From: Arenicellales bacterium
GTDB lineage: Bacteria; Pseudomonadota; Gammaproteobacteria; Arenicellales; JAJDZL01
Length of the DNA stretch: 64,000 bases
NCBI GenBank assembly: GCA_965206345.1
Contig: OZ242211.1
Coordinates: 1,791,808-1,855,807, forward strand
Direction: 5' to 3'
Shown piece after piece: positions 8,816 to 28,436 of this stretch. The notes beneath the pieces are model-generated. The model worked only from the letters and a program-made list of their open reading frames with translations, was not told the origin of the DNA and did not search any database. A program made the position numbers and the translations under genes. Numbering within the stretch: position 1 is the stretch's first letter; every line of letters starts with the position of its first letter.

Positions 8816-10549
8816 TTACTTATACATCGTTTGAGCCTTGGTCCCGGGAGCATATTCAGAGGGATCAACCCAGATGTTGATCACAGCAGACAGTCCTGAT
8901 TTGTGGACTTGCTCTCTTGCGCGAAGTAGGGCAGGTTCAATCTGACTGGGATCGTGTACTTCTTCACCATAGCCACCCAGCATTTCGGCAAAACGGGAAA
9001 ATGGTACATCACCCAACAGGTTGCCGACATCTCCGCGTTCGGCCCCGTATTTGGCAATTTGACCATATCTTATCTGGTTCATCGCACTGTTGTTCCCGAT
9101 CACTGCAATATAGGGTGCACCAAATCGATTGGCTGTTTCCATATCGAAAGCCGTCATGCCAAATGAGCCATCTCCGTAATAACAGAGCACTTCTTTGTGC
9201 GGATGGGCAAGTTTGGATGCCATGGAAAAAGATGTTCCGACTCCAAGTGTTCCAAGCGGTCCGGGGTCCATCCAGTGTCCCGGTGTACGCGGCTGCACGG
9301 CTTGAGCGGATATGGTTACGACATCTCCACCATCGCCAATGTAAATTGTGTCTTCAGTGAGGAAATTGTTAATCTCCCAAGCCACCCGATATGGATGAAT
9401 GGGGTTGCGGTCCGACATAAACAGCGGCATGAGTTTTTGTGTGCGCTCATGTTCTTCCGCTCGCAGATTGTTCAGCCAGTTTTTTCGTTCTGTGCTATTG
9501 GCGGCTGTTTTACCTCCTGCTGCTTCGACTACGGCACTAAGGATAGTGCCAGGATTACCAACAAGTCCGAGCGATATGTCGCGATTCTTGCCAACTGTTC
9601 GGTAGTCCATATCAATTTGAACAACAGTTGCCTTGGAACGAAGCCTTCTTCCGTATCCCATACGAAAATCAAATGGCGTTCCCACAATCAGAATCAGATC
9701 TGCATTGTTGAATGCAGATCGTCGTGTTCGATGAAAATGGTTGACATCATTCGGAGGCAGAGTACCGCGCGCGGAGCCGTTAAAGTATGCCGGCAAATTG
9801 AAGGCACGAATGAATTCAATGGCGGCATCGGTTGAACCGGAAGTCCAGACTTGGGTGCCAAACAGGACACAGGGAGTTTTGGCTTTGGTCAGGAGACTGG
9901 CCAACTTGTCAATATCTACCGGATCGCCTAGTGCACCAGTAGAAGCACGGTAAGCGTTTGGACTTGGAATTCGAGCATCTCTCAGATCAATCTCTGCATC
10001 AAGAATGTCGCGGGGTATTTCAAGATACGATGGCCCAGGTGCGCCATTGTGACTTTCCCTGCAAGCCATGGAAACCATGTCTGCTATGCGCTCGGTACTA
10101 CGCACGCCTGCAGAGAATTTAGTGATGGGTGCCATCAAATCAACATGTGGTAGGTCCTGCAAAGATCCCATTTTGTGCTGGCTGAGTGCGCCTTGGCCAC
10201 CAATGTGCAAAACGGGACTTTCAGCTCGAAATGCATTGGCAATGCCAGTGACGGCATTGGTACAGCCAGGACCAGCTGTGGTAACTACACAACCAGTTTG
10301 GAGTGTCTGTCGAGCGTACCCATCTGCAGCATGTGCTGCGACCTGTTCGTGTCGGACATCAATGATGCGTATGCCTTCGTCAATGCAGCCATCGTAGATG
10401 TCAATGATATGTCCGCCACAAAGTGTAAAAATCGTGTCAACACCCTCATTTTTCAGGGCTTTGGCGACCAGATGACCGCCTGTAATTATTTCCGAATCCG
10501 CAACGACTACCGGTTGCTCTAAGGTCTCGTTTGCTACTGCTTGAGCCAT
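8816..10549 (-). CDS. oxc: oxalyl-CoA decarboxylase (ThDP-dependent)
   Basis: The ThDP motif is YYGDGSFGM...GNNSAMN. Length is 577 aa from the ATG at 10549, which follows GGGGGAAG. The ORF-track start at 10615 adds 22 unlikely residues. Confidence 0.9.
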   Translation of the reverse strand: MAQAVANETLEQPVVVADSEIITGGHLVAKALKNEGVDTIFTLCGGHIIDIYDGCIDEGIRIIDVRHEQVAAHAADGYARQTLQTGCVVTTAGPGCTNAVTGIANAFRAESPVLHIGGQGALSQHKMGSLQDLPHVDLMAPITKFSAGVRSTERIADMVSMACRESHNGAPGPSYLEIPRDILDAEIDLRDARIPSPNAYRASTGALGDPVDIDKLASLLTKAKTPCVLFGTQVWTSGSTDAAIEFIRAFNLPAYFNGSARGTLPPNDVNHFHRTRRSAFNNADLILIVGTPFDFRMGYGRRLRSKATVVQIDMDYRTVGKNRDISLGLVGNPGTILSAVVEAAGGKTAANSTERKNWLNNLRAEEHERTQKLMPLFMSDRNPIHPYRVAWEINNFLTEDTIYIGDGGDVVTISAQAVQPRTPGHWMDPGPLGTLGVGTSFSMASKLAHPHKEVLCYYGDGSFGMTAFDMETANRFGAPYIAVIGNNSAMNQIRYGQIAKYGAERGDVGNLLGDVPFSRFAEMLGGYGEEVHDPSQIEPALLRAREQVHKSGLSAVINIWVDPSEYAPGTKAQTMYK

Positions 10550-10650
10550 TATTCTTCCCCCGGATTTTGTGAATATTTTGGCATTTTTCTGAATTGTATA
10601 CAATATACCATACACGTGTTTATCAAGTCAACAGCTTTGGACACACCGTA

Positions 10651-11249
10651 ATGCTGATTGGCCACGCTCACGTTTCCACTGACGATCAAAGTCTGACACT
10701 ACAGCTAGATTCGCTTCGCGACTTCGGATGCGAGAGAATTTTCGAAGAAAAGCTCAGCGATTCAATTCGCCATCCAATTCTTGACAAAGCTCTTGAATTT
10801 GCCAGGGTTGGGATACCTTGGTAATAATATGGCGACTTGACCGACTAAGCCGCTCGTTGCGGGATCTGATTGACACTGTTGCACTGCTTGAATCTCAAGG
10901 AGTCCAACTAATGAGTATTCAGGAATCGATTGATACTACGACAAGTAACGGCAAACCTAATTTTTACCTGTTCGGCGCGCTAGCGGAGTTCGAACGGAAT
11001 TTAATCCGAGAAAAGACCGTGGCCGGACTGCAGGCCGCTCGTGCGCGCCGCCGCCGGTTTGGTCGACAACCCGCATTCGACAAGGTTATGCAGCATCGTG
11101 CTGTTGAACTGTATGAGAAACAGAGCCTCACGGTTCGCGAAATATGCGACTTGATGAATATCAGCAGGCCGACTCTCTACAAATATGTAAGAGCAGAATC
11201 TCAAATGAAAGAGACGCCCGACGATCAAGTGCATATGGCCGTCAGATAA
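10651..11249 (+). pseudogene. serine recombinase (resolvase/invertase family) inactivated by a single -1 frameshift
   Basis: The N-terminus MLIGHAHVSTDDQ (catalytic Ser context) runs to ...ARVG and then hits a stop. The reading continues in the -1 frame as DTLVIIWRLDRLSRS...LFGALAEFERNLIRE...ISRPTLYKYV (HTH). Restoring one G at 10810-10812 (GGG to GGGG) gives ARVGDTLV and a 199-aa protein. Confidence 0.85.
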
Positions 11250-11678
11250 TCCCAAGCTAAGCGTCATGTTTCCAGTGTAACTGACAATGTGCTCCGTGTG
11301 ATACGCAATAACGACAGGTTTGACGAATTCGAAATCAAGTTCCACCGCGTGACACACACGGGGCGAATCGTAAATTTCTGGGCAGGGTGCCAAGCGTTCC
11401 GTGTTGCCTAAAACATGGCTCGATTTGCCGAGTTTCAGAGTTTTAAACAAAGTGGGTGCGTTGATCTCTTCGCAGTAATCCAATACCAAGGTTACGAGAA
11501 TGTGCTGATCTAATAGACTTGCGGAATGGACTGCCCCGGGTTGCTTGTTCTCTGAATAATAACGACGCAAGTTTGGAGGGAGAAGTCCCAGTGACAGGCG
11601 AAAATTCAAAAAACGCATATCTATGTGGAGAAATTTGTCTTGCACTCGCAATTGTTCAGAAATTTCGAGAACAGTCAT
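11001..11678 (-). CDS. hypothetical protein; 3' third runs antisense through the resolvase gene
   Basis: 225-aa ORF with no recognisable motifs. Codons beyond about 143 (coordinates below 11250) are antisense to the resolvase HTH region, so the present C-terminus may be an accident of element insertion. Confidence 0.35.
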   Translation of the reverse strand: MTVLEISEQLRVQDKFLHIDMRFLNFRLSLGLLPPNLRRYYSENKQPGAVHSASLLDQHILVTLVLDYCEEINAPTLFKTLKLGKSSHVLGNTERLAPCPEIYDSPRVCHAVELDFEFVKPVVIAYHTEHIVSYTGNMTLSLGLSDGHMHLIVGRLFHLRFCSYIFVESRPADIHQVAYFANREALFLIQFNSTMLHNLVECGLSTKPAAARTSGLQSGHGLFSD

Positions 11679-12263: not shown

Positions 12264-12375
12264 CTACAGCGATTACGATAGCAATAGTCAGGGCGATGTT
12301 GATCCACTCATTCGAGGTGAGAGCGAAAAATTGCAAAGATTTCCCGTTTGCGATGGCTGTGCGGAATTGCTCCAA
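12154..12375 (-). CDS. small single-pass membrane protein, or the frameshifted N-terminus of the 11688-12263 ORF
   Basis: 73-aa ORF with one hydrophobic helix (INIALTIAIVIAVGAQAW). It overlaps the next ORF by 110 nt in another frame. Confidence 0.25.
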   Translation of the reverse strand: MEQFRTAIANGKSLQFFALTSNEWINIALTIAIVIAVGAQAWVTHRQAQISDYYVQPQNRSSNLLAWLHQKII

Positions 12376-12901
12376 TTACGAAACGCCCCAGAAAATCCAA
12401 CATCGTGATACAACGGCTTGCCTGCAACGTACGCCTGCGAAATGCGATGCACTACTGGGCGCAAGTCGCGGTCCAGCAAGATCAGATTAGCAAGGCAAAA
12501 TATAGCACATTGCTACTCAGGGGCTACTCACACACCCGTGAATCGCTCAGTTTTGGTGATTGACTGCTGAACGTTGTCTGTGCAATATTGAAAAGTCAAT
12601 CTGAATTTAATCCAGAATTCAGATCCTTTCAGGAAGCAGCATGATTCAGCCGACTGTACAAAGTGTTAAATAGACTTTTCAACAAGTCCGTCAATCGGCG
12701 CTTGTTATACCGCTAGTTTTGGACTTGACAAATGGTGGGTAGTCCCCCGGCGTCCTCACTTCAACCGCGACAGCAGAATTGACTCTACTCCATTTCTTTA
12801 TATTTATCCCGTATCATTTGCCTCGGCTGTCTATTGTTATCGGACTCAATGGAACACTACAACAACAATTAAAACTGAACTGGTAGCGCGAAAGCTCGTA
12901 T

Positions 12902-14806
12902 ATGTCCACTCAGGATAGATCTCTAACATTAATCAAATGGATGAAATTGACCGTGGGCCTTTCCTTAACCAGTTTACTATTTGGCTGTGTCTCAGATGAA
13001 TTTGGAAAGCAGCAAGTTCAAATAACTCCTCCCACTCAAGAGCAGTCAGGCGACTTGGATTTTGAAGCCAGCCTGGATGAGATACTAACACAGTTAAGGG
13101 GGGATTTACACCAGAGAGAACACAGTTCCAGGAATCAGATTGCTGAGAACAATGGGTTGAGTAATGGGAAGATTACTGTAGCCCTACCCCATGCGGATGT
13201 GAAATCCAATCAAGATGTGCATGTGCAATACCAGACAACATTTGGAGGGAACCATGGGCATGGTGCCCGCAAGGAGAACTATTCGTATTCAGTTGATTCG
13301 TACCAGTATTCAGAGACTCGGGTCAATTCAGAGATTTATGGTGGGTCTTTGACTTCTGCCGAATTTTCGGAAAAGATTCGGCTTCCCACCTCCTTTGAAG
13401 AATGTGAGAAAACTCCAGAAAACCAAATCCCTAAGCCAGTCATCCATATTCATGACAAATCTGTCTGGACGTTTTCCATACATCATGCTCAATTTGATAG
13501 GCTTGATCGTGATCAGTTGATCCCAGTATTCACAATGAAGCACTCTTCCGGCCGCCCCGTTCGAAGTGTCGTAAAGATGGATTCACGCATTCGGTCGGGA
13601 TCCAATGGTCAAAGTCTTGCGAACCTCAAATTCTCCTGGTATTACGACCCGCCCATTGGTTCCAGGATAAGTAATCAGCTGATTGAGGGGAATCATTTTG
13701 ATATGGTTGTTGATACAGTGGGTGAACATGTTGTGGCCCTTCGCATGGAAGATGAGAGCGGAGCCTGTGCCGTTCGAGCGGTGAAATTTCTCTCTACAGC
13801 CAATGTGCCTTATCAGGTCCCGCGAGTTTCCAGGAAGGCTCTCTATCAAGAAGCAGGGTTTGAATTTGATCTAGAGACTGCTTATCTGGATCAAATTCAG
13901 GGGAGGGCGTCTTGGAAACACTCTCAGGGAGAGGGGGTGACAATTGCTTATCTGGATTCCGGCTTGAACTACAACCACCCCTTGGTGGCTCACAATGCGA
14001 AGGTCAATGAGGGAGAGATTCCTGGCAATGGTTTAGACGACGATCAGAATGGCAGGGTGGATGACTACACCGGCTATGATTTTTTTCACGACGATCCCTA
14101 CCCGTTTGATGACAGCGGTCACGGGAGCCAAGTCACAGGTCTGGGGGTTTCGGCGTTGGGTCTGGCTCAAAATGCGCGGGTGCTTCCGGTGAAGGTTTCA
14201 GGTATGGGTACCCTTTCCATAGAGACTTTGATTTCGGCGATCCATTACGCTGTGGATTCCGGGGCACAAATTATCAATGTATCCCTTGGTTCCAACTCGC
14301 ATCGCTTCGATCACCATCTGCGAGTGGCGGCTGAGAATGTCATTGCGTATGCTAAAGCGCATGGTGTGTTAATCGTGGCGGGGGCAGGAAATGATGGTCG
14401 ACAAAATCCAGATTTCTTTCCAGCGAGTTTCCCATCCGACAATATCATAACCGTGGGAGCTGTCGATGGAAATGGTTTGCCTGCTCCTTACTCAAACTGG
14501 GGCGTTCAAATTGATATTGCGGCTCCAGGGGGAACCGACGCAGATATGATAAGTTCCATCTACATGTATAACCCCAAATCATACTTGTTCTCTAAAGCCA
14601 CAGGAACCTCGCTTGCGACTTCCCTTGTGTCTGGGTTGGCGGCCCAAATACTCAGCATCAATCCTCGACTCTCTCCTGATGAGGTAATTGATATCATCAT
14701 ATCTACAGGAGACGTCTCTCCCGCTCTTCAGGGGAAGGTCAAATCCGCTAGTGTGATCAATGCTCTAAATGCAGTTCTGGCGGCAAAGAAAACATTGACC
14801 CAATGA
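12902..14806 (+). CDS. S8 subtilisin-family serine protease, lipoprotein, with a ~330-aa uncharacterised N-terminal region
   Basis: Lipobox LTSLLFGC. The catalytic triad contexts are AYLDSGLNYNHP (Asp), DDSGHGSQVTG (His) and ATGTSLATSLVSG (Ser). The Asn context is VAGAGNDG. A PKD/Ig-like stretch precedes the protease domain. Confidence 0.85.
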   Translation: MSTQDRSLTLIKWMKLTVGLSLTSLLFGCVSDEFGKQQVQITPPTQEQSGDLDFEASLDEILTQLRGDLHQREHSSRNQIAENNGLSNGKITVALPHADVKSNQDVHVQYQTTFGGNHGHGARKENYSYSVDSYQYSETRVNSEIYGGSLTSAEFSEKIRLPTSFEECEKTPENQIPKPVIHIHDKSVWTFSIHHAQFDRLDRDQLIPVFTMKHSSGRPVRSVVKMDSRIRSGSNGQSLANLKFSWYYDPPIGSRISNQLIEGNHFDMVVDTVGEHVVALRMEDESGACAVRAVKFLSTANVPYQVPRVSRKALYQEAGFEFDLETAYLDQIQGRASWKHSQGEGVTIAYLDSGLNYNHPLVAHNAKVNEGEIPGNGLDDDQNGRVDDYTGYDFFHDDPYPFDDSGHGSQVTGLGVSALGLAQNARVLPVKVSGMGTLSIETLISAIHYAVDSGAQIINVSLGSNSHRFDHHLRVAAENVIAYAKAHGVLIVAGAGNDGRQNPDFFPASFPSDNIITVGAVDGNGLPAPYSNWGVQIDIAAPGGTDADMISSIYMYNPKSYLFSKATGTSLATSLVSGLAAQILSINPRLSPDEVIDIIISTGDVSPALQGKVKSASVINALNAVLAAKKTLTQ

Positions 14807-15032: not shown

Positions 15033-15074
15033 TCCTGAATATCACCTGTAAACGAACTACAGCGCAACCAGGCT

Positions 15075-15098
15075 GATACAGAATCACCATTCTGTCTC
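15075..15098 (+). repeat. site S1 of the 24-nt near-palindrome family: GATACAGAAT-CACC-ATTCTGTCTC
   Basis: 7-bp perfect stem ACAGAAT/ATTCTGT. It is preceded by GGCTGA and followed by CTCATTT, as at S3. It lies 44 nt from the 3' end of the tRNA-like gene. Confidence 0.7.
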
Positions 15099-15141
15099 AT
15101 TTTCATCCATAAAACCGATGAACCAATTCATGAGGATGGAT

Positions 15142-15218
15142 TGGTGCCGGTGAGAGGACTTGGACCTCCGACCTGTCAATAACGAATCGGCTGCTCTGCC
15201 AGTCTGAGCTACACCGAC
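15142..15218 (-). tRNA. tRNA-Thr(CGU)-like gene with non-canonical features (possible pseudo-tRNA or element-borne tRNA)
   Basis: A hand-folded 77-nt cloverleaf has a 7-bp acceptor stem (one G-U), a GCTC/GAGC D stem, the anticodon loop TTCGTTA, a 5-nt variable loop, a GGAGG/CCTCT T stem and an encoded CCA. Anomalies are a C28-A42 mismatch, T at position 37, and the T loop TCCAAGT (C55 instead of the invariant U55). Confidence 0.55.
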
Positions 15219-15339
15219 TTGGTACAGACGTGAGCAGAGTAGCGCAGTTTAATCAGATTATTTCACATTCCCAAGATCAAAATTTCAATTTACTAAGGCA
15301 AATTCACAGTATCGTAAATACCTATTCTACTTGTAGTTG

Positions 15340-15966
15340 TCATTTAGGCTTGAGAACACCCATGAGCTTCACCCTTTCTGCCTTGGCGAAGTCAGCAGGT
15401 GCGATGAATCCGCTAGGGTCGTGTGGGATGTGAATCCCCAGTTTCCGATAACACTCCCATACATATTCCGAGCAGATGAATTCTCGGTCCGGCTTGAAAA
15501 TATTTGCAAACTTCTTAGTAAAAGGTAGGTAAGATGCTCCGATGCGAGCGGCAATTTTGACGATCTCATCCTTGTCATAGGGGTAGCCGAACAGGTCGAT
15601 GGCGAACTGCCCAAACTCACGTAAATTCTTCTTGTTGGCCAAGATGGAAAAGTCACTGTGACGGGCTATAGCGACCCCACCAGGATATGGATTCCCTTTA
15701 CTGTCATAATCGACGAGGTACTTACGCAAGGGGACGGTGCGTACGCCCAACGGCTCGACGCTTTCCAATACCATCACCCGGTCTATGGCGTCCAACCGCA
15801 TTACAAATCCCACATGGCTCCAGGTGCTCCCAGTCGCCGCCTGAATCATGCGGGAAAATATACCAGATCCGGAACAAAGCAGGAGATCACCGGATTTTAT
15901 TTTGGGCCGGAAATTACTGTATTTGGTTATCGCCCTCGTCGGGAATCTCTTAATTGGAGTTTTCAT
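15340..15966 (-). CDS. YiiX/DUF830-like permuted papain-fold (NlpC/P60-superfamily) protein
   Basis: 208 aa from the ATG at 15966, which follows AGAGGG. The His context STWSHVGFV and the downstream Cys context REFICSEYVWECY appear in the permuted order typical of the YiiX family. The family assignment rests on pattern recognition only. Confidence 0.6.
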   Translation of the reverse strand: MKTPIKRFPTRAITKYSNFRPKIKSGDLLLCSGSGIFSRMIQAATGSTWSHVGFVMRLDAIDRVMVLESVEPLGVRTVPLRKYLVDYDSKGNPYPGGVAIARHSDFSILANKKNLREFGQFAIDLFGYPYDKDEIVKIAARIGASYLPFTKKFANIFKPDREFICSEYVWECYRKLGIHIPHDPSGFIAPADFAKAERVKLMGVLKPK

Positions 15967-16044
15967 TGTTTGCCCTCTCTTTTCAAGTTCAAAATTTCTT
16001 GTAAATTGGCATTTTATTGGTTTCTCGGCAAACCTATCGTTTGT

Positions 16045-16067
16045 GAAACAAATGTCCATACTGTCTC
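16045..16067 (+). repeat. site S2 (degenerate): GAAACA_AAT-GTCC-ATACTGTCTC
   Basis: Same architecture as S1 and S3, with a 1-nt deletion and one substitution. It is followed by CTCATTT and about 165 bp homologous to the S3-to-int interval. Confidence 0.6.
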
Positions 16068-16253
16068 ATTTGATTGCACGCTTGAGTCAATATCCATTGT
16101 CAGTCGGACTGATACAAGTATCTGCAGCGGGCTGATGCAAAACAGTAAATTTATCGTACTGTGTCTACCGAAGGAAACATCACACTGGTCTATCAGCGTG
16201 GCCTGTGGTTACAGGCTGGATCAAAATCAGTTACGAAAACAACTACAGCGCAA
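16068..16253 (+). pseudogene. remnant of a second copy of the small tyrosine recombinase (leader + first ~14 codons only)
   Basis: 16045-16210 aligns by eye at about 70% with 18034-18200. The in-frame translation VSTEGNITLVYQRG compares with VSDDGIISLVDWRG of the intact gene. Homology then stops and the 13-mer AACTACAGCGCAA (16241-16253) follows. Confidence 0.55.
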
Positions 16254-16330
16254 TCGCCTCAAAATCAAGTAAGCTTTTGGAAATGTTGATATACTCATAA
16301 CATGATGATGGCATACATTCATTTGTAGAA

Positions 16331-16753
16331 GTGAGTGAAGCAAAAGAACCTAAAGGCGAACATATAAAAACCCGCAATTGCTCGTGTCGTGATGGTGGAG
16401 GATGGGATAGACTCATCAATCAAGTGACAGATGTTTGGTTTAATGACAATTTCAACGATTGGAAGTCACCTCGTCGGTTTTGCTTTGCTCTTTTGGGCTC
16501 GCTTAGCTTAGCTGTTTTCTTAGTTCCCGCTATAAAGGAAAGAATTGCTGAACAGCTGCCTACATTATTCTCCGACCCGGCACTTGAAACAGTCGAATCA
16601 ACATTCAGCTCTATATTCGTTATAGGATTGTCATTATTCTTTGCCGGAATTGTGAGTTGGCGCAACGAAAAGTCTGGTCCTGTAAGGATGTATCTCGCTG
16701 GGCTTACACTACCAGCTCTCGTATGGTTCATTGTTGAGCGTACCGTTAATTAA
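16331..16753 (+). CDS. hypothetical integral membrane protein (3 predicted helices)
   Basis: 140 aa with a GTG start. Hydrophobic segments are FCFALLGSLSLAVFLVPAI, IFVIGLSLFFAGIVSW and YLAGLTLPALVWFIV. It ends 5 nt before the next ORF. Confidence 0.5.
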   Translation: MSEAKEPKGEHIKTRNCSCRDGGGWDRLINQVTDVWFNDNFNDWKSPRRFCFALLGSLSLAVFLVPAIKERIAEQLPTLFSDPALETVESTFSSIFVIGLSLFFAGIVSWRNEKSGPVRMYLAGLTLPALVWFIVERTVN

Positions 16754-16758
16754 ATGAA

Positions 16759-17499
16759 ATGAAATTTCGAGTTATACCTATAGCGATAGTACTGACGCTT
16801 GTTATCGGCAACGGACACGCACAAGATCAGGACAGCGTATCAGCGGCGACTGTGTTGCATGCAAACCATGCCGAATTAAATTTACTGGATATATTGGCCG
16901 CTGGCCGGGACTTACTGATTAAACCTTCCCGTGTAAGTGATTACTGGCCCGAGTATCGTTACAGCTATAGTGCGGTAGTTGATGCGTTTTCAGGAGATTC
17001 AACGGACGGTGAATCGCTTTGTGACATCGCAAGTAGAGATGCAGATTCCGGTGACTTTAATCTTGGGACAATTGCCGTTTTTTGGGGTGAGCCTAGTGAA
17101 GAAGAGGGGAGTAGAAGCAGAAACGATCAATCTTTAATTGGTTGGCCGATCGTGACTGAAGTTGATCTTGATACTTCGGGGGATATTACTTGGAGTGCAA
17201 ATGACAATAGTTGGAGTCTTGATTTTCGAGAATTCTGTGGGGGAATAGAGGCCATCGAATCCGCAGTAAACAATGGATACAATCTGCCCAATCTGGTGAA
17301 TACGAACGTAGGCGGAGTCAAAGGGATTAATATTGATGCCGCAACCGCAACCCTTGATCACATTTCTGTGTCAATTGGAGAATCTGAAATCAATCGCCAG
17401 AAATTATATTTCGTAACTTCTCAAGCGCTTCCGGATCAAAACCTCGAATTTGAACGCGTGCGAATTCAACCTTTACCACAGAATAGACTAATCAACTAA
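16759..17499 (+). CDS. hypothetical secreted acidic protein
   Basis: 246 aa with the signal peptide MKFRVIPIAIVLTLVIGNGHAQ. No recognisable domain. Confidence 0.55.
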   Translation: MKFRVIPIAIVLTLVIGNGHAQDQDSVSAATVLHANHAELNLLDILAAGRDLLIKPSRVSDYWPEYRYSYSAVVDAFSGDSTDGESLCDIASRDADSGDFNLGTIAVFWGEPSEEEGSRSRNDQSLIGWPIVTEVDLDTSGDITWSANDNSWSLDFREFCGGIEAIESAVNNGYNLPNLVNTNVGGVKGINIDAATATLDHISVSIGESEINRQKLYFVTSQALPDQNLEFERVRIQPLPQNRLIN

Positions 17500-17600
17500 C
17501 GTCACTTCATCCGAGTCCGCAAGACATCTTTGGTTTCGGCGACTTGTTAGTGATTAGATTCTCGCATGTTTCCAGATTGATTTCCAGCGAATCCATGTCT

Positions 17601-17891
17601 TTAAGCAAAGACCTGCGTCAATTTATTGGCAAAATCACGAGTTCTCGGCACCAGTGTGAAATCGAAATCGACCGGCAACTCGTAATTCACATCCCCCAAT
17701 ATGCCTAAGGAAAAACCAAACCGGTATTTCTCAATCACTTTCTCCCCGCCCTGAGCATCGATGGTGTATTGGCGGTGGCAGCCCTAGGCCGCATCCGGAT
17801 CTGAGGCAGTCCTTTCACTGGTGACAGGATCGACTTGGTCTTGGTACCCAGTCGAGTGTGACTCAACGGACTTGCCGTGCAATGTAGTGTG
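17601..17891 (-). pseudogene. gene remnant with an in-frame TAG (unknown family)
   Basis: The minus-strand frame reads ...LHGKSVESHSTGYQDQVDPVTSERTASDPDAA*GCHRQYTIDAQGGEKVIEKYRFGFSLGILGDVNYELPVDFDFTLVPRTRDFANKLTQVFA*. The composition is protein-like, but the frame is interrupted at 17784-17786 and has no start codon. Confidence 0.3.
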
Positions 17892-18033
17892 CTACATATG
17901 GCGTCAAAACCCGTCTGCTGGCCGAAGTCTGGACACCGTTGGGTAAAACGGTCCCGTAGCTAATTGACACTTAACAGCCGGTTGCCGATGGTGACTGGTG
18001 CGAAAGTCCGTTCTGTATGTTGAGAGGGTGGCT

Positions 18034-18057
18034 GAAACAGAATTGTCATTCTGTCTC
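18034..18057 (+). repeat. site S3 (best copy): GAAACAGAAT-TGTC-ATTCTGTCTC
   Basis: 7-bp perfect stem plus 2 outer pairs. It lies about 85 nt upstream of the recombinase start and is preceded by GGCTGA and followed by CTCATTT. Confidence 0.7.
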
Positions 18058-18141
18058 ATTTGGCTGCAGGCCCTACTCAAATTCCTTTGTCGACCGGTCT
18101 GATACAAGTGTTTTCACCATGCTTGTGCGATACAGTACACT

Positions 18142-18741
18142 GTGCGTATTGTGTCTGACGACGGAATCATCTCACTGGTCGATTGGCGTGGCCGCAAGTA
18201 CCTCACTGCGGTCGAGCGGCAGCGTTTTGTGAAGGTGGCACAAACCGATCCAATTCCTGCGGTCCAGACTTTTACGCTGGCTCTAACCTACACCGGTTGC
18301 CGGATATCCGAGGCGCTGGCGGTGCGCCATTGCGACGTTGACCTGGATAACCTGGCAATTCGATTCAAAACGCTAAAACGCCGCCAGGATGTGTGGCGGG
18401 AGGTGGCGGTTCCCCAGGATCTGATTCGAGCCATCGATCTGGTACACTCGGTACGTGCAGCGCAAAGCCGACCGCGAAGAGCGGCCCGAAGACTGTGGAA
18501 ATTCAGTCGGTCAACCGCTTCGAGACACGTCAAGCGTTTAATGGCCTCGGCTGATATCGAGGGGCCTCAGGCGTCGGCTAAAGGATTGCGCCATGGCTTT
18601 GGTGTAGCCGCCATCGAGGCAGGTGTGCCGCTGCCGACCATCGCTGCGGTGCTTGGGCATGCCAATATCGAAACCACTGCAATTTACACCACGGCCATCG
18701 GCATGGAAGCGCGCGAACAGCTGGCCAGGATGTGGCGGTAG
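18142..18741 (+). CDS. compact tyrosine recombinase (catalytic domain only, FimB/FimE size class)
   Basis: 199 aa. Motifs are TGCRISEALAV (Arg I), GLRHGFGVAAI (H-x-x-R) and LGHANIETTAIYT (His + catalytic Tyr). There is no N-terminal arm-binding domain. Two 60-nt spot counts give 53% and 60% GC, against about 40% in the flanking cargo. Confidence 0.85.
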   Translation: MRIVSDDGIISLVDWRGRKYLTAVERQRFVKVAQTDPIPAVQTFTLALTYTGCRISEALAVRHCDVDLDNLAIRFKTLKRRQDVWREVAVPQDLIRAIDLVHSVRAAQSRPRRAARRLWKFSRSTASRHVKRLMASADIEGPQASAKGLRHGFGVAAIEAGVPLPTIAAVLGHANIETTAIYTTAIGMEAREQLARMWR

Positions 18742-18790
18742 TTACAAATCAATAGGTCGAGGTACTTGGAACTTCAAATAGGAAAACTGA

Positions 18791-19303
18791 ATGATGAAAC
18801 ATTTTAGTCGGTTGTTTGGGCGAATTCATAACGAAGAAGACCCATGGAGTTTAATTGCTATCTTCATTGCTTTCATTACGTTTGTCGTTTGCTTGGGTTG
18901 GTATTATTTCAATGTAGAATTGCGAACTTCTGCAGACAGTGACATACTCGGTATCTTAATTGCGGCCAGTATTGTCATAATTTTCTTCGTACTCACCAAA
19001 ATATTAGCAATTACCGTTCACTGGCTAACGGGTCGGAAAAAAGAAAAACCACAAAGGGATATGTTCAAAAGCCTGGGAATTGAAGAAAAGGCTGCTGTGA
19101 AAGAGTTTGTTGATATTGGACGCGAATATATGATTCGGCAAGAAATATCCGATTTGCCTCGAAACTCTGTATCTGGGATGGAATCACTGCTTCAACGAGA
19201 AATAATTCGGCACTCTCCCACAAGTGGTTACAAGAGCGAAGTATTTGTTTTGAATCGTAAACTATACAACTACGCCAGAAAACCTATTTACTTGCAAACA
19301 TAA
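18791..19303 (+). CDS. two-helix membrane protein, possibly superinfection-exclusion SieB-like
   Basis: 170 aa. It has two N-terminal TM helices, a basic stretch GRKKEKPQR, then FKSLGIEEKAAVKEFV...LLQREII. This matches the L-S-x-E-E-K...L...E-F pattern I associate with the SieB family (PF14163). That is a recollection, not a search result. Confidence 0.45.
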   Translation: MMKHFSRLFGRIHNEEDPWSLIAIFIAFITFVVCLGWYYFNVELRTSADSDILGILIAASIVIIFFVLTKILAITVHWLTGRKKEKPQRDMFKSLGIEEKAAVKEFVDIGREYMIRQEISDLPRNSVSGMESLLQREIIRHSPTSGYKSEVFVLNRKLYNYARKPIYLQT

Positions 19304-20001
19304 ATTTCTTCATCGCACCCGGAAAATTTCTCTAACTTTAACTGATTGTCGTTCAACTCAACAACAATTTTGTTACCTTCTTCTTTGAACTTGAGGCATT
19401 TCTGTCGATCCTCGATTTGATCAAGTATACGCAACACGGGATTTCTGCGCGGAAACCCCCAATTGGCTTGATAGACGACTTTGCTCCCAGGTTTGTAAGC
19501 ACGGAAATTCATGACCTTTTTTCTAATATCTTCTGATATTTCAAACTGTATTCCGTCTTCTTTTTGAACTCCGAACTGATCTTCGTAAAAACTAATAATC
19601 GTCCCAATAGTATCGCATGGATCAAGTGTAATACTATCGGCGTATTCTGCCTGTCCACTCGCACCATAGAACGGACGAAAATATAAAACAACTACTAACA
19701 GGATAGCGATACCACCAAAGGCCTTCAAATCTATGCCATATAGAGAGGTTTTTATTTTTATCATGCCGCCCACAACCCAAACGCCTGCCACTGCGATGAG
19801 CAAGCCAAGAAGTGCATCGGCAAGCGTGGCTTTTGCGGTTCCAGGCGGTACTCCTAACACGTAGATAAACAGAGTCAACAGTACTAGAAGCACTGCGCAG
19901 ACAACCAATCCCTGAACTGTGCCCTTTGAAAACCCGCGCTTCTGTGTCACCTGGTTTGAGGCAGCGGTTGTCGGCCGTTTATCCTTTTTTTCATTAGCCA
20001 T
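19288..20001 (-). CDS. hypothetical membrane protein (3 TM helices + ~110-aa soluble C-terminal domain)
   Basis: 237 aa. It starts 10 nt downstream of the preceding minus-strand ORF and converges with 18791-19303, overlapping it by 16 nt. Confidence 0.55.
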   Translation of the reverse strand: MANEKKDKRPTTAASNQVTQKRGFSKGTVQGLVVCAVLLVLLTLFIYVLGVPPGTAKATLADALLGLLIAVAGVWVVGGMIKIKTSLYGIDLKAFGGIAILLVVVLYFRPFYGASGQAEYADSITLDPCDTIGTIISFYEDQFGVQKEDGIQFEISEDIRKKVMNFRAYKPGSKVVYQANWGFPRRNPVLRILDQIEDRQKCLKFKEEGNKIVVELNDNQLKLEKFSGCDEEIYVCK

Positions 20002-20010
20002 GGCGACACC

Positions 20011-20715
20011 CTAATAAAAATTCATTGACCGCAAGCAATCGCTGAAATTGCCAACGTCTGTGGCTATGTAGGTATCAGAGTTTCCATATCCGATACAACC
20101 ACCTCCAAAGAATAATATACCGTTTGAATAGTGAGTGTTATCGACCAGAGTGGATGTGCACATTTTAGTTGCAACTTTGTTTGTAATTACTGCTTCGACA
20201 AGCGAAGAAATAGCCTCAGAATCTGACATGAGAGAAACGCTGCCTTCATCGTCAAACGTCAGTAGCGGGCTAATCAACAACATGACGAGGTCGCTCAATT
20301 CGACCGATTCTTGTCTCCTGCAACGCCACTCCAGATTGATGATATATTGGGCCGATGTGAAACGCTCGGCAAGTTCTCTTGAAATGGGAGAATCAAAGTC
20401 AAAGGGATTAGCATCGTGAGTGAAACTCGCCCAGTAATTTTCGTTGAATATTGGCACTAGCGTACTTTCCAAACGTTCAATTCCAAGCGATAAATTGTTC
20501 CCGAATCGCTGGTGCAACCTGGCAGTAGAGTTTTTGGACTCTATGAGGGTGCAGTGATTATTACTCCATATTTTGCTACAAATGTTTGAGACCTTTGCGC
20601 TCGCATTGCCAATCTCGGGATTGCAATCGCATGTTCCGCCGAATACTATGGCACTTCCTGACAATGCTAACGTTGCGATGGTTAGGATACGGATAAACAT
20701 AATATGACCTTTCAA
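20011..20715 (-). CDS. hypothetical secreted Cys-containing protein
   Basis: 234 aa. The signal peptide is FIRILTIATLALSGSAIVFG, followed by GTCDCNPEIG. No family recognised. Confidence 0.55.
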   Translation of the reverse strand: MKGHIMFIRILTIATLALSGSAIVFGGTCDCNPEIGNASAKVSNICSKIWSNNHCTLIESKNSTARLHQRFGNNLSLGIERLESTLVPIFNENYWASFTHDANPFDFDSPISRELAERFTSAQYIINLEWRCRRQESVELSDLVMLLISPLLTFDDEGSVSLMSDSEAISSLVEAVITNKVATKMCTSTLVDNTHYSNGILFFGGGCIGYGNSDTYIATDVGNFSDCLRSMNFY

Positions 20716-20967
20716 AGGAGTTAACGATGTAAACAGCGATAATAATTCATTTATTCAAGTTTCTCAATTTAGTCGATCTGGCCAAACTCTAATCCAAAAA
20801 ATCTTCACACTACTAATTGCTCCAACAATTAAAACCGCAAATACAGTATGCAATACGTACAACTACCCAGGAAATTAGTTAGAACGTTCAAACGTGCGAC
20901 AACCGCTGAACACACGTGTGGAAACCATCGATTGCTGACAGATCATCCCCATTCTTTCCGTCTAGGT

Positions 20968-20991
20968 GAAACCTAATGGCAATTCTGTTTC
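20968..20991. repeat. site S4: GAAACCTAAT-GGCA-ATTCTGTTTC (reverse complement GAAACAGAAT-TGCC-ATTAGGTTTC)
   Basis: It matches S3 at 18/24 as written and at 20/24 as the reverse complement, where one arm is 10/10 and the spacer 3/4. Orientation is therefore probably inverted but not certain, because the site is nearly palindromic. Confidence 0.5.
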
Positions 20992-21523
20992 AAACTCGGC
21001 GAGTAAATTTCAAGTTACATTCGAGCGGGCGATTGTACAAAATAAACAGCTGCGTTAAATCGTGTGATCTCCGCTCAAAGCACGTGTGGTCGGCCGTTCA
21101 TCGCTGCGCGGCTGCAGGCACAGGAGGCCTACAATGAGCAACCAGAAATGATCCTTACATAGATGACGAAATACTTTAGGGTGAAAGAATTCTGGTCTGG
21201 ATTCAGGGAGATTCAATTTAGCTATACGAACTACAGGATCTACAGGATAAAGGCGATATTGTTATTTACACTTGTTTACAATGGAGTGCAATTGATGGAA
21301 ATTCCAAAAGAGAAATTGCTGATTTGGATGGAGAATGTCTTAGTTTCAAATACTATCGTCGCGTTGTTGGAATCGAAATCAAAGTAGCAAAAATTATTTT
21401 GTTCACCATCGCACTACCCGCACTCAGACGGCAGGAGGCGAACTGAACTGTTTTTTTTGGTGTCTGGGGGAATTAGTAACTATACATCTCAAGCAATATT
21501 AACGTTTCGCATTGAGTAGAAAC

Positions 21524-22468: not shown

Positions 22469-22514
22469 TAGGATCTATAGTTGATCGGACAGCATTAGAA
22501 CAGAATTTGCTAGT

Positions 22515-23112
22515 AATATTGTGTTAGCAATCGTCAGTGAGCAAATTGGTTCTTTAGTTTCTTACTCGAAATAAGGAGTGGATGTAACTGCTCTATGAAG
22601 AGAAAAACCATTGCTTAGACTTCTATCTCTGAATTTGTATAGACCTGAGTATTCATTTTCAAGAAAATTGGAGACCTCGCTGACGACACCCTTGTAGATT
22701 GGCGATTTGATCATCTCAGCCGGTCGCATTGAGATTTAATTGTAACTGTCGCAATGCTTGAATCTCAAGGTGTCCAATTAATGAGCCTTCAGAATCGCTT
22801 GATTCGACTACAAGTAATCGCAAACTAAATTTTCACCTGTTCGGAGCGCTGGCGGAGTTTGAACAGAACTTAATCCGCCAAAGGATAGTAGCCAGACTTC
22901 AAGCGGCGAGAGAGAGGATATCGCTTTGACCGTCCACCCGCACTCGACAGATCAATGCAGCGATGTGCGGTTGGACTGTAGAAAAGAAAAATCTAAAGGC
23001 ACGCAAAATCTGTGAGTGAATCAAAATCTGCAAACCAACCCTCTACAAGTATGTCAAAGAGGTGGTTCAAAATAAAGAGAAACTCAAGATGAGTAGATGT
23101 GCAGATAGATAG
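22515..23112 (+). pseudogene. second, heavily decayed serine recombinase gene (same orientation as 10651-11249)
   Basis: Colinear with resolvase 1 across frames: VSEQ..., LYEEK, ADDTLVDWRFDHLSRS, MLESQGVQLMSLQ, HLFGALAEFEQNLIRQ, PTLYKYVKE. Several stops and frameshifts interrupt it. Confidence 0.65.
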
Positions 23113-23343
23113 TCTCAACGCTCATTCAAAGGTAATCGAATCAAGGCAAATTCGACTCGCCGAATTCCAGCTACATTCTTCATACGTAAACCTCGTTAAA
23201 TTGAATCACCGACTAAACCAAACCTGTCTGGCACTATAGTTTGGTATATTGTTTTGATGACTCATTCAATTGTTACTTCAGAATTCACTTGCAATATCAC
23301 GGAATTCTACATGTACTAGGCATGATCGCGAGGCTGGATATAG

Positions 23344-24114: not shown

Positions 24115-24312
24115 GTCTGTTGCGTATCAGCTGAAGTGTTGGCGGAGGTAGATTGCTCTCGAAACACTCTTGCAGCGCGAATTCCCGATGTCGTACTGAG
24201 CAATCGTAATAAAGGATTATCTTTTAGTTACGTTTTATCTCGCCACCCACGATCAGAATTTGATAATTGGTGTGGACAAATATTAAAATTTGCAGAACAG
24301 AAAAAATTTAGC

Positions 24313-24357
24313 TTTCTAATCAGCAGATCGGAGGTCCAATCCTCCCGACGCTCCACC
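24313..24357 (+). other. degenerate tRNA 3' fragment (anticodon-loop-like TTTCTAA, Arg-TCT-like)
   Basis: The T arm GGAGG-TCCAAT-CCTCC is followed by CGACGCT-CCA. No 5' half is present. The T loop shares the odd TCC with the tRNA-like gene at 15142-15218. Confidence 0.3.
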
Positions 24358-24376
24358 TATGTCGGTTGGTTGGCCT

Positions 24377-24426
24377 ACTGACTTTTAATCAATTGGTCCG
24401 GGGTTCGAATCCCTGACGGCCCACCA
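24377..24426 (+). other. tRNA-Lys(UUU) 3' fragment (anticodon arm to CCA), likely att-site relic
   Basis: ACTGA-CTTTTAA-TCAAT-TGGTC-CGGGG-TTCGAAT-CCCTG-ACGGCCC-A-CCA closely parallels E. coli tRNA-Lys from position 27 onward. The upstream 26 nt cannot form an acceptor or D arm. Confidence 0.7.
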
Positions 24427-24558
24427 ATCCACCCTCATGGCTGGATTCAGGTTCTACTGATTAGAAATCTGAGTTCTACCTTCTAAACTCCGGCCTCGAA
24501 GACCACGTCAATCGGTATTGAGGGCGTTAGTTTGCCTGGCGGAACAAACAGGGATAGG

Positions 24559-26859: not shown

Positions 26860-28436
26860 AGTCGGCCCTGAATAAACCAATATTCGCCAGTATATCATTG
26901 TTACCATTGACTATTGTCATCATTTGAACTGTTCTGAAATTGCCGGAAACGATATAATTGCCCATCATTTCCCTGCAATTTCGAGAATAAAAATGAAGCC
27001 TCACTCAGCCCGCAATGAAGACCAGTCCGAGCTGTTCCGAAGCCGACTTGACAGCCAGATCAACATGAACCATGAACTGGTTCGGCTGTCATCCCTGATC
27101 GACTGGAGCGTGTTCGATGACCGGTTCGGCACCCTGTATCACGCCGACAGGGGCAGTCCTGGAAAACCCACCCGTCTGATGGTGGGACTGCTGTATCTGA
27201 AGCACATTCACAGGCTGTCCGATGAGCAGTTGGTTCATGGCTGGCTGGAAAATCCGTACTGGCAGTACTTCTGTGGCGAGAGTCACTTTCAGACCGAGTG
27301 GCCGATTGATCCGAGTTCGCTGACGCGCTATCGCCAGCGCATTGGTGACAGTGGCTGTGAATGGCTGCTGCAGCAGACGATACAGGCGGGAATGAAAAGT
27401 GGTGCGGTTCGAAAGTCGCATCTGAAGCGGGTGACGGTGGACACCACGGTGCAGGAGAAGGCGGTGAGATTTCCGACCGACGGCAGGCTGCTGAACCGGT
27501 CCCGGGAACGTCTGGTGAAGCTGTGTCATCAACACGGTGTGGGGCTGCGTCAGAGTTATGCGCGGGTGGGTCCGCGGTGTCTGATTCGTGCCAGTAACTA
27601 CGCGCATGCGCGCCAGAGCCGGCGGATGCGCCGCCAGATTCGAAAGCTGCACACCTTTCTGGGACGGGTGGTGCGCGACATTGAACGGAAGATCAGTGAT
27701 GACGATCAGCTGCAGCAGATCTTTGCTGATGAGCTGGCGATGGCGAAAAGAGTGCTGGCACAGAAAAAGGACAGTTCCAACAAGCTTTACAGTCTGCATG
27801 CACCGGAGGTGGAGTGCATCAGTAAGGGCAAGGCGCACAAACGCTATGAGTTTGGCGTCAAGGCCAGCATTGCGGTTACAAACCGCAGCAGTTTCGTGGT
27901 CGGTGGTCTGGCCCTGCCGGGCAATCCGTTTGACGGTCATACGCTGAAAACAGCCCTGGATCAGGTTCGCAGGTTAGGTGGACAGCGCATCGAGGAGGTG
28001 TATGTGGACCGCGGTTACCGCGGTCACGATGAAACGGACAGTGCGGTGTACATCTCGGGGCAGAGGCGCGGGGTGACGGATCGAATCAGACGGTGCATGA
28101 AGCGTCGTCAGGCGATCGAGCCGGTCATAGGACATCTGAAGCAGGATGGCTGGCTGGGGCGCAATCACCTGAAGGGCACTGAAGGTGACAGTGTGAATGT
28201 GCTGCTGAGCTGTGCCGGACACAATCTGCGTCTGATCCTGAAGCGATTGAGGGGCCAGTGTGCCCGTATTTTTTGTCGCTCGGTTCATGGCCGGATTATT
28301 CGGCTCAAACGGGTACTGCCGGGTGTGAATTACCGTTTTCTGGCGCTGAGCGCAGCATAAGGGCTTTGCTGCTTGAGAATGCCCGACGCTGATCGCTTCG
28401 AATATCGACTGAAAACCGGATTTTTCAGGGCCGACT
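26860..28436 (+). mobile_element. IS5-family (IS4/IS5 superfamily) insertion sequence, 1577 bp
   Basis: Perfect 13-bp terminal inverted repeats AGTCGGCCCTGAA / TTCAGGGCCGACT. They are flanked by the direct repeat AAATT (26855-26859 and 28437-28441). Spot GC is about 55%, against about 35-40% in the surroundings. Confidence 0.85.
26993..28360 (+). CDS. IS5-family DDE transposase
   Basis: 455 aa from the ATG at 26993. The N-terminal region is ELFRSRLDSQINMNHELVRLSSLIDW...PGKPTRLMVGLLYLKH. The C-terminal part has VDRGYRGH...RQAIEPVIGHLK, which is the Y-2-R-3-E-6-K signature. Confidence 0.85.
   Translation: MKPHSARNEDQSELFRSRLDSQINMNHELVRLSSLIDWSVFDDRFGTLYHADRGSPGKPTRLMVGLLYLKHIHRLSDEQLVHGWLENPYWQYFCGESHFQTEWPIDPSSLTRYRQRIGDSGCEWLLQQTIQAGMKSGAVRKSHLKRVTVDTTVQEKAVRFPTDGRLLNRSRERLVKLCHQHGVGLRQSYARVGPRCLIRASNYAHARQSRRMRRQIRKLHTFLGRVVRDIERKISDDDQLQQIFADELAMAKRVLAQKKDSSNKLYSLHAPEVECISKGKAHKRYEFGVKASIAVTNRSSFVVGGLALPGNPFDGHTLKTALDQVRRLGGQRIEEVYVDRGYRGHDETDSAVYISGQRRGVTDRIRRCMKRRQAIEPVIGHLKQDGWLGRNHLKGTEGDSVNVLLSCAGHNLRLILKRLRGQCARIFCRSVHGRIIRLKRVLPGVNYRFLALSAA

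Follow-up and report, generated by a model that had tools for sequence, protein, structure and literature searches.

A minimal tyrosine recombinase and a 26-bp palindromic site in a putative mosaic of gene modules from an Arenicellales bacterium

In Acinetobacter, accessory genes occur in dif modules, i.e., units bounded by short sites with near-palindromic arms that are often found in inverted orientation (PMC6449649; PMC13141974). A comparable arrangement is described here from the genome of an Arenicellales bacterium (GenBank assembly GCA_965206345.1, contig OZ242211.1, positions 1,791,808 to 1,855,807), in a stretch of 64,000 nucleotides that is called the window throughout. A block of about 6 kb in this window contains int, a gene for a tyrosine recombinase that consists of a catalytic domain only, and four sites, S1 to S4, that are related to one 26-bp palindrome. 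The explanation that we consider best, at slightly better than even chances, is that the block is a mosaic of gene modules joined at this palindromic recombination site, and that it is now largely frozen. Its closest analogues are dif modules and integron cassettes, from which it is set apart by a minimal recombinase of its own.

The likeness to dif modules is that a given module turns up in more than one context and that the breaks coincide with the sites, which is the case for the int module and for the S4-type and S1-type module heads described below. However, dif modules are plasmid-borne and depend on host XerC/XerD and 28-bp sites (11-6-11), whereas the present sites have near-identical arms in an 11-4-11 arrangement, are chromosomal and are accompanied in cis by their own catalytic-domain-only recombinase. 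The site also appears to be set apart from XerC/XerD sites by sequence and geometry. Int scores below the cut-offs of the Xer models (the best NCBIfam model is XerA, 68.5 vs. 220 bits; XerD, 57 vs. 330 bits) and matches only the C-terminal domain of Xer structures, the N-terminal core-binding domain being absent. As in integrons, the primary site is located directly upstream of the recombinase gene and int-less cargo units have a site of their own (L005 and L115; L numbers denote loci that were fetched for comparison). On the other hand Int is without the IntI-specific insertion, the integron profiles match only its C-terminal ~80 residues (TIGR02249, 57.2 vs. 265 bits; PRK15417, 41.5 vs. 435 bits), and the cargo is co-oriented or convergent to int, may be multi-gene and may carry its own promoter.

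To our knowledge, the main examples of tyrosine recombinases that lack a core-binding domain are those of the FimB/FimE fimbrial switches. The original prediction placed Int in the FimB/FimE size class, which is correct in that it has about 200 aa, no core-binding domain and an alignment over the whole profile, but the scores are far apart (PRK09870, 34.2 vs. 221 bits; PRK09871, 34.6 vs. 222 bits). A short invertible promoter element bounded by 9-bp inverted repeats is furthermore missing here, the sites are 26-bp self-palindromes and the family is also plasmid-borne. In single-recombinase resolution modules (XerS/difSL, XerH/difH, Cre/loxP, plasmid ResD/rfsF, Tn4430 TnpI/IRS) the recombinase gene similarly follows closely on its site, another binding element is interposed between the core site and the start of the gene, and each plasmid has one site, beside par/rep genes; they differ in that their enzymes carry an N-terminal core-binding domain and in that chromosomal multi-site arrays with int-less heads are not found among them. 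The R64 shufflon (Rci/sfx) and Hin/hix share with the present locus the presence of several short sites, in either orientation, close to a recombinase gene, and in Hin/hix as in locus L105 the recombinase gene is located between inverted 26-bp sites. In the shufflon, however, the 3′ ends of one gene are swapped by a recombinase of 384 aa (Rci), whereas whole unrelated genes are found here, in one arrangement in related loci, and Hin is a serine recombinase.

The recombinase and its palindromic site

int is located on the plus strand at 18151–18741. The open reading frame, which starts at 18142, had been predicted to encode 199 aa; alignment with homologues makes the GTG at 18151 the likely start and reduces the protein to 196 aa. 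That it comprises a catalytic domain only was borne out by Pfam PF00589 (73.4 bits vs. a cut-off of 27.1, residues 20–184, no other Pfam match) and by an AlphaFold2 model (mean pLDDT 78), which contains the catalytic fold only and is nearest to the catalytic domains of XerA, XerH, and XerD. In an alignment of 30 homologues read by eye R51, K76, R147, H170, and Y179 are invariant or nearly so, while the first His of the RKHRH pentad is replaced by K144 (Lys or Arg among the homologues). The GC content of int is 59%, and thus above the 42–46% of its flanks, as previously noted. The gene is judged to be intact and under purifying selection, with a dN/dS of 0.15–0.21 relative to the intact copies in L001 and L002.

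The closest relatives of Int are found in metagenome-assembled genomes of Arenicellales. A protein search returned more than 1700 relatives, mostly of 190–200 aa, and an exhaustive profile search gave at least 410 clusters (50% identity) at E ≤ 1e-30, carried by plasmids and chromosomes in Alpha- and Gammaproteobacteria and in other phyla. The family is apparently large and uncurated, as no specific NCBIfam model matches it. No account of the recombinase–site pair was found in the curated libraries and papers searched, and nothing relevant turned up in the literature on the site sequence, on recombinases that are small or limited to the catalytic domain, or on plasmid pSXM33. Some family members have 280–416 aa, with the recombinase domain at the N-terminus followed by a C-terminal extension. 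No relatives were found in viral contigs, and a phage origin was rejected on this ground.

S1, S3, and S4 fit one palindrome, TGAAACAGAAT-N4-ATTCTGTNTCA. Compared with GAAACAGAAT-N4-ATTCTGTCTC, S1 (from 15075) has one mismatch, S3 (from 18034) none and S4 (from 20968) three, at a chance expectation of 0.02 matches, and the palindrome is not found elsewhere in the 64 kb, which confirms the relationship between these sites that had been proposed. At its full extent S1 is TGATACAGAAT-CACC-ATTCTGTCTCA (15074–15099, plus strand) and S3, the core site of the int module, is TGAAACAGAAT-TGTC-ATTCTGTCTCA (18033–18058, plus strand). S4 reads TGAAACAGAAT-TGCC-ATTAGGTTTCA on the minus strand (20967–20992). 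S2 is rightly regarded as a related copy but is decayed (TGAAACA_AAT-GTCC-ATACTGTCTCA, 16044–16068, plus strand); relative to the corresponding site in L116, TGAAACAGAAT-GACC-ATTCTGTGTCA, it has lost one nucleotide and carries substitutions, one of these in an arm. The motifs GGCTGA and CTCATTT, which had been pointed out as shared beside the sites, are for the most part the outer bases of the palindrome arms themselves. A proposed half-site at 22498–22510 was rejected as it has two mismatches (over ~22496–22510) and is at chance level, and the other extra half-sites fared likewise. A 13-mer, AACTACAGCGCAA, is indeed present both left of S1 and right of the remnant that follows S2, but local alignments of the left flank of S1 with the S2 remnant or int are no better than those of shuffled controls (score 31, 95th percentile 30), and the repeat is regarded as unproven.

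The association of the palindrome with the recombinase extends well beyond the window. Among 81 fetched loci the palindrome, or a co-varying form that keeps the outer TGAAACA, is found about 100–160 nt upstream of int homologues in Arenicellales, Alphaproteobacteria and one Armatimonadales genome, and also on a plasmid; in Rhizobiales it abuts the ATG. A strict scan of 1.24 Mb from the fetched loci gave 49 sites compared to none in shuffled sequence, and 22 of the 49 fell within the 1.7% of the DNA that is directly upstream of int, while a loose scan gave 72 sites vs. four. The site is conserved more tightly than the protein. On this evidence the recombinase has the palindrome as its cognate site, and the link is general. 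The expectation that homologues elsewhere would have such palindromes upstream was thus borne out in many genomes. A tRNA-targeting integrase was also considered, and was rejected because a tRNA was near int in few of 46 loci, about as expected by chance; the tRNA-Thr repeat in L005 is not general.

Downstream of S3 a conserved leader (18059–18155, plus strand) contains a second palindrome, GATACAGTAC-N7-GTATTGTGTC (18129–18155), that lies over the GTG start. The consensus of this related palindrome is GATACAGTAC-N7-GTAYTGTGTC, and it overlaps the start codon. It is against this background that the palindromes could be viewed as regulatory operators, or as a REP-like or terminator repeat, and not as recombination sites, which we hold to be very improbable. 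The palindrome over the int start and the Rhizobiales site abutting the ATG make autoregulation by binding likely, although as an additional role, and most exact matches in metagenomes have no int nearby (see below). However, the palindrome is confined to the island around the block and is not spread over the window; it is not the REP-like element that had been named as grounds for refutation, and homologues elsewhere have it upstream. The hairpins predicted for the DNA have little stability (−3.8 to −5.6 kcal/mol, or about −5 kcal/mol; S2 forms none) and there is no T-run, so that a hairpin or terminator was rejected; because the hairpins are weak the sites are taken to be double-stranded palindromes and not folded sites of the attC kind. 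Finally, homology breaks and hybrid sites fall on the centre of the palindrome (see below).

Homologues with 40–50% identity to Int are found on small plasmids, beside parA-copG-repA in Acetobacteraceae or beside toxin-antitoxin or partition genes. In a Sedimenticola plasmid of 33 kb there is a single site, TGAAACACTAT-N5-ATAGTGTTTCA, and it precedes the int gene by about 95 nt. The layout of a multimer-resolution cassette, i.e., a single site, a recombinase gene and maintenance genes on a circular replicon, is thereby seen among the 40–50% homologues. Because the plasmid homologues sit beside par/rep genes, in one case with a single site, the ancestral role of the recombinase was probably plasmid multimer resolution, a function suggested by the layout, and the module type found here would then probably derive from such cassettes with one site just upstream of the gene.

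The site as a junction between gene modules

S3 is the left boundary of an int module that is conserved in eight close loci, with 81–88% identity between the modules. When the eight loci are compared pairwise, the 120 nt to the left of the site are 26–29% identical, i.e., random; identity rises to 70% in the left arm, drops to 36% across the four central bases, reaches 91% in the right arm and is 71–84% in the leader. The break is seen most directly in a close relative, between L112 and L113/L114, three contigs from three samples that encode the same recombinase protein: they are 97% identical for 1.9 kb rightwards from the spacer TGCC, while the left arms are TGAGACACTAT and TGCTACAGAAT, respectively, and the DNA to the left is unrelated. 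L003 and L006 have hybrid sites with a degenerate left arm. Judged from these alignments, the site is the joining point of unrelated gene modules. At the junctions of L112 (1380–1460) and L113 (346–426) one of the left arms is of the CTAT type of another subfamily.

The alignments also indicate that the modules are not all int-bearing, as S4 and the S1 head are int-less module types that recur in other genomes. The S4-type head (20925–20992, minus strand) consists of the site and a conserved flank, CCTAGACGGAAAGAA..., and a head of this type, of about 70–85 nt, is found in the window, L002, L003, L005, L006, and L115, which together with an S4-type site in L116 makes seven loci; cargo and left flanks are unrelated in every one of them. 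The stretch 20952–20994 is 95% identical to L115 6178–6220. In L005 and L115 the S4-type head is followed by co-oriented cargo, an S3-type site and int, the cargo being an AAA_15/AAA_21 ATPase or a methyltransferase-HNH protein. The S1-type head, i.e., the site, a 43-nt trailer and tRNA-Thr, recurs in L001 with a 3′ fragment of the tRNA only and another left context, and similarity to L001 starts at the site (15078–15175 vs. L001 7056–7150, 82.7% identity).

From what is known of tyrosine recombinases it is expected that a recombinase dimer would occupy both palindrome arms and that two sites would be paired, with strand exchange in or beside the central four bases. Each module would then retain the right half-site together with its own head, while the left neighbor would be supplied by the recombination partner. 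Three types of head can be distinguished in the window on these terms: the int leader (intact at S3, and at S2 followed by an int that is deleted after codon ~14), the S4-type head, and the trailer with tRNA-Thr at S1.

The contents of the block can be described accordingly from left to right. The body of the S1-type module (15100–15218, minus strand) is the 43-nt trailer and a tRNA-Thr(CGU) at 15142–15218, a gene that had been called tRNA-like and that is genuine according to ARAGORN and Rfam. It is followed by a unit (15228–16203, plus strand) in which a YiiX-like gene and S2 are joined to the leader and the initial ~14 codons of a second int, and which is 89.6% identical over 977 nt to L116 9067–10043, where the recombinase is intact. 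The first module of the original prediction, which comprised the tRNA and the YiiX-like gene, is therefore a composite, since this block was inherited as one unit separate from the S1/tRNA unit. The label of the YiiX-like gene (15340–15969, minus strand) holds, as Pfam Peptidase_C92 matches above threshold (38 bits) and the protein is 91% identical to that of L116. The second int remnant itself (16069–16203, plus strand), with leader, second palindrome (16139–16165) and about 14 codons, is 73% identical to 18059–18193; with the site included, 16044–16203 and 18033–18193 are 73% identical over 161 nt, and the decapitated second recombinase copy that had been predicted is real. To judge from this similarity, S2 is a second int module that has lost its gene through a deletion ending at 16203, a point that is free of a site. 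Because the S2 block is 89.6% identical to L116 and only 73% to S3, the S2 and S3 modules belong to different lineages. At least two int modules of different lineages in tandem fit the tandem accretion and decay that had been suggested. Copies of int in the same genome are no closer to one another than to copies elsewhere, and they are therefore separate acquisitions or old lineages.

Past the truncation there is cargo for a 140-aa membrane protein and a 246-aa secreted protein (16331–17499, plus strand), neither of which matched Pfam, NCBIfam or PADLOC, and whose sole relative among the fetched loci is one weak match in L003. Downstream of int the cargo comprises a 170-aa membrane protein (18791–19303, plus strand), whose label as SieB-like is below the Pfam cut-off (22 vs. 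26 bits), and the convergent operon sec234 (19288–20767, minus strand), encoding a 237-aa membrane protein and a 234-aa secreted protein without any family match in Pfam, NCBIfam or PADLOC. A promoter scan found a promoter-like site for sec234 at 20767–20739 (TTGAGA-17-TATTAT, 10/12) and none upstream of int. When the cargo proteins of the window were compared with all fetched loci the only matches were YiiX (L116) and two weak ones.

It is unlikely, although it would account for part of the evidence, that the block is a plain relic, i.e., that the backbones of plasmids or islands with an ordinary resolution cassette were integrated by other means (e.g., IS elements, serine recombinases or integrases that target tRNA genes), that the enzyme took no part in any exchange of modules, and that the extra sites are leftovers of duplicated cassettes. 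In agreement with this the island contains other debris of mobile DNA (two serine-recombinase pseudogenes, two IS transposases, tRNA fragments), the plasmid homologues resemble resolution modules, several chromosomal int copies are frameshifted, a 48-bp tRNA-Thr direct repeat surrounds the int island of L005, and int has a stable syntenic context in L019, L027, and L028 and, separately, in L024, L031, and L032. It leaves unexplained, however, that similarity breaks exactly at the centre of the site in eight loci, that L112 and L113 have alternative left junctions, and that int-less S4- and S1-type heads recur with different cargo and left contexts. Even if the array were only a fossil of plasmid resolution cassettes it would help in recognizing and annotating DNA of integrated plasmids or islands in these genomes.

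There are several observations that weigh against a mosaic joined at the site. First, in an unbiased scan of metagenomes for the exact palindrome an int relative was found in only one of 13 stretches. Second, two junctions are not at a site: that at 16203, which is the left end of the cargo for the 140-aa and 246-aa proteins, and the 3′ end of the int module, where similarity breaks sharply 3–4 nt past the stop codon, so that the turnover of cargo beside int is not explained by the site. Third, partner sites have different spacers, as is seldom the case in canonical tyrosine recombination. Fourth, the int copies are 12–15% diverged with star-like relationships and the events may therefore be old. 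Finally, neither circular nor alternative junctions came to light for the window itself, as its proteins do not occur in the contig collection.

It is tempting to go beyond the mosaic in the window and to speculate that the recombinase and the palindrome form a widespread and undescribed system of modular exchange, in which int-less, S4-headed cargo would be captured, inverted and exchanged in trans. Such a system, which we put forward tentatively and as possible rather than probable, would parallel dif modules or integron cassettes while encoding its own recombinase, and would build the accessory-gene arrays of marine Arenicellales. Were the enzyme indeed to act in trans on heads that lack int, there would be a third modular, cassette-like route of gene exchange beside integrons and Xer/dif modules. 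The small size of the enzyme (196 aa) and of its site (26 bp) would also make the pair attractive as a minimal tool for recombination.

Two of the fetched loci have further repeats around their sites. In L005 a 48-bp direct repeat of the 3′ end of tRNA-Thr (6135–6182 and 11056–11103) delimits an island of 4.9 kb with the small recombinase, two sites and a pair of AAA_15/AAA_21 ATPase genes. L004 has three site copies with a non-int flank of about 70 nt (139–215, 9774–10166, and 14120–14494), two of which form a 395-nt inverted repeat that includes a 5′ remnant of int.

Orientation of the sites and present activity

The central tetranucleotides of the four sites are all different: CACC (S1), GTCC (S2), TGTC (S3), and TGCC (S4, minus strand). 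As most spacers are T[GA]CC the sites have a polarity, by which S1, S2, and S3 are direct and S4 is inverted. The inverted orientation proposed for S4 was in this way confirmed, with the addition that S4 belongs to a separate class of recurrent sites. Because S2 is degraded and all four tetranucleotides differ the array is taken to be largely frozen, and the sole plausible reaction that remains would be inversion of the 2.96-kb segment between S3 and S4, whose spacers differ at one of four positions.

The same spacer was not found in two direct sites of any locus, which is the residue expected of an active enzyme since compatible direct pairs would be deleted. Exactly reverse-complementary spacers were found in two inverted pairs, in L001 (CTGC/GCAG) and in L105 (AGCC/GGCT). 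Among the 10 close loci an inverted partner is located 1.7–4.6 kb downstream of int in the window, L116, L001, L004, and L003 (in the latter after an int fragment), and in L006 it is located 9.8 kb downstream. The recurrent inverted partner could be a native invertible architecture or could merely have survived the deletion of direct pairs. In L105 (3526–4216) the open reading frame of a relative with 34% identity is bracketed exactly by two perfect 26-bp inverted sites in a unit of 691 bp, the start codon being 3 nt after one site and the stop codon inside the other, and this unit is located upstream of an ECF sigma operon.

An active invertible switch is in our estimate quite improbable. Here the recombinase would flip the S3–S4 segment, in which int and the SieB-like gene share a strand while the genes for two envelope proteins are on the opposite one, and expression would become phase-variable as with Hin/hix or a shufflon. 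Such a switch would agree with the inverted polarity of S3 and S4 and the difference at only one of their four central bases, with the inverted downstream partner in 5–6 of 10 close loci, with the exactly reverse-complementary spacers of L001 and with the L105 recombinase between two perfect inverted sites. Yet the spacers of S3 and S4 in the window are not identical, sec234 has its own promoter-like site inside the segment, so that inversion would be without obvious regulatory consequence, the three L105-type contigs all have the same orientation, and inverted pairs may simply survive once compatible direct pairs are deleted. The active shufflon or phase-variation switch that had been considered for the whole array is likewise not supported, given the degraded S2, the differing tetranucleotides, the left end of the cargo at 16203 away from any site, the whole-gene cargo and the promoter-like site of sec234. 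A toggle driven by an external promoter was rejected, as sec234 has its own promoter-like site and there is none upstream of int. Structural heterogeneity, which had been looked to as a sign of activity, did not appear in related loci from several samples: all six contigs shown for the L005-type locus have a single arrangement, and the only alternative junctions among the compared samples are those of L112 vs. L113/L114. A mosaic joined at the sites in the past, and now largely frozen, remains our preferred explanation.

Setting of the block and other mobile DNA

The block is enclosed in an island of low and uneven GC content of about 21 kb (~10.7–31.9 kb of the window), which is bordered on the left by a gene for an oxalyl-CoA-decarboxylase-type thiamine-pyrophosphate (TPP) enzyme (8816–10615) and on the right by an aminopeptidase P gene (from 31919). 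Among the contents of the island are two IS transposases, a pair of serine-recombinase pseudogenes and fragments of tRNAs, while the only real tRNA is the tRNA-Thr(CGU) of the block. The serine-recombinase pseudogenes, of the resolvase/invertase type (10600–11300 and 22600–23200), have frameshifts and stops; they are direct repeats with 72% identity, the S1–S4 region lies between them, and both are similar to L003 12187–12668. The transposases (26924–28360 and 29814–31064; DUF772/DDE_Tnp_1 and Mutator/IS256 type) explain the spikes of high GC content at 27–28 and 30–31 kb, and L004 and L006 have copies of the first of them with about 80% identity.

At 24215–24461 a sub-threshold tRNA (24364–24423) that is similar to the 3′ half of tRNA-Lys adjoins an element of about 76 nt, of which there are several copies in L001 and L003, and the two look like traces of other tRNA-targeting elements. 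A stretch of 401 nt with a non-coding appearance (12348–12748) is 90% identical to segments of L003 and L004, in another genome, and may be a small mobile repeat. A 634-aa subtilase (12902–14806) adjoins S1 and matches the defence-candidate model 'subtilase' of PADLOC with 82 bits, the sole PADLOC match among the proteins of the window.

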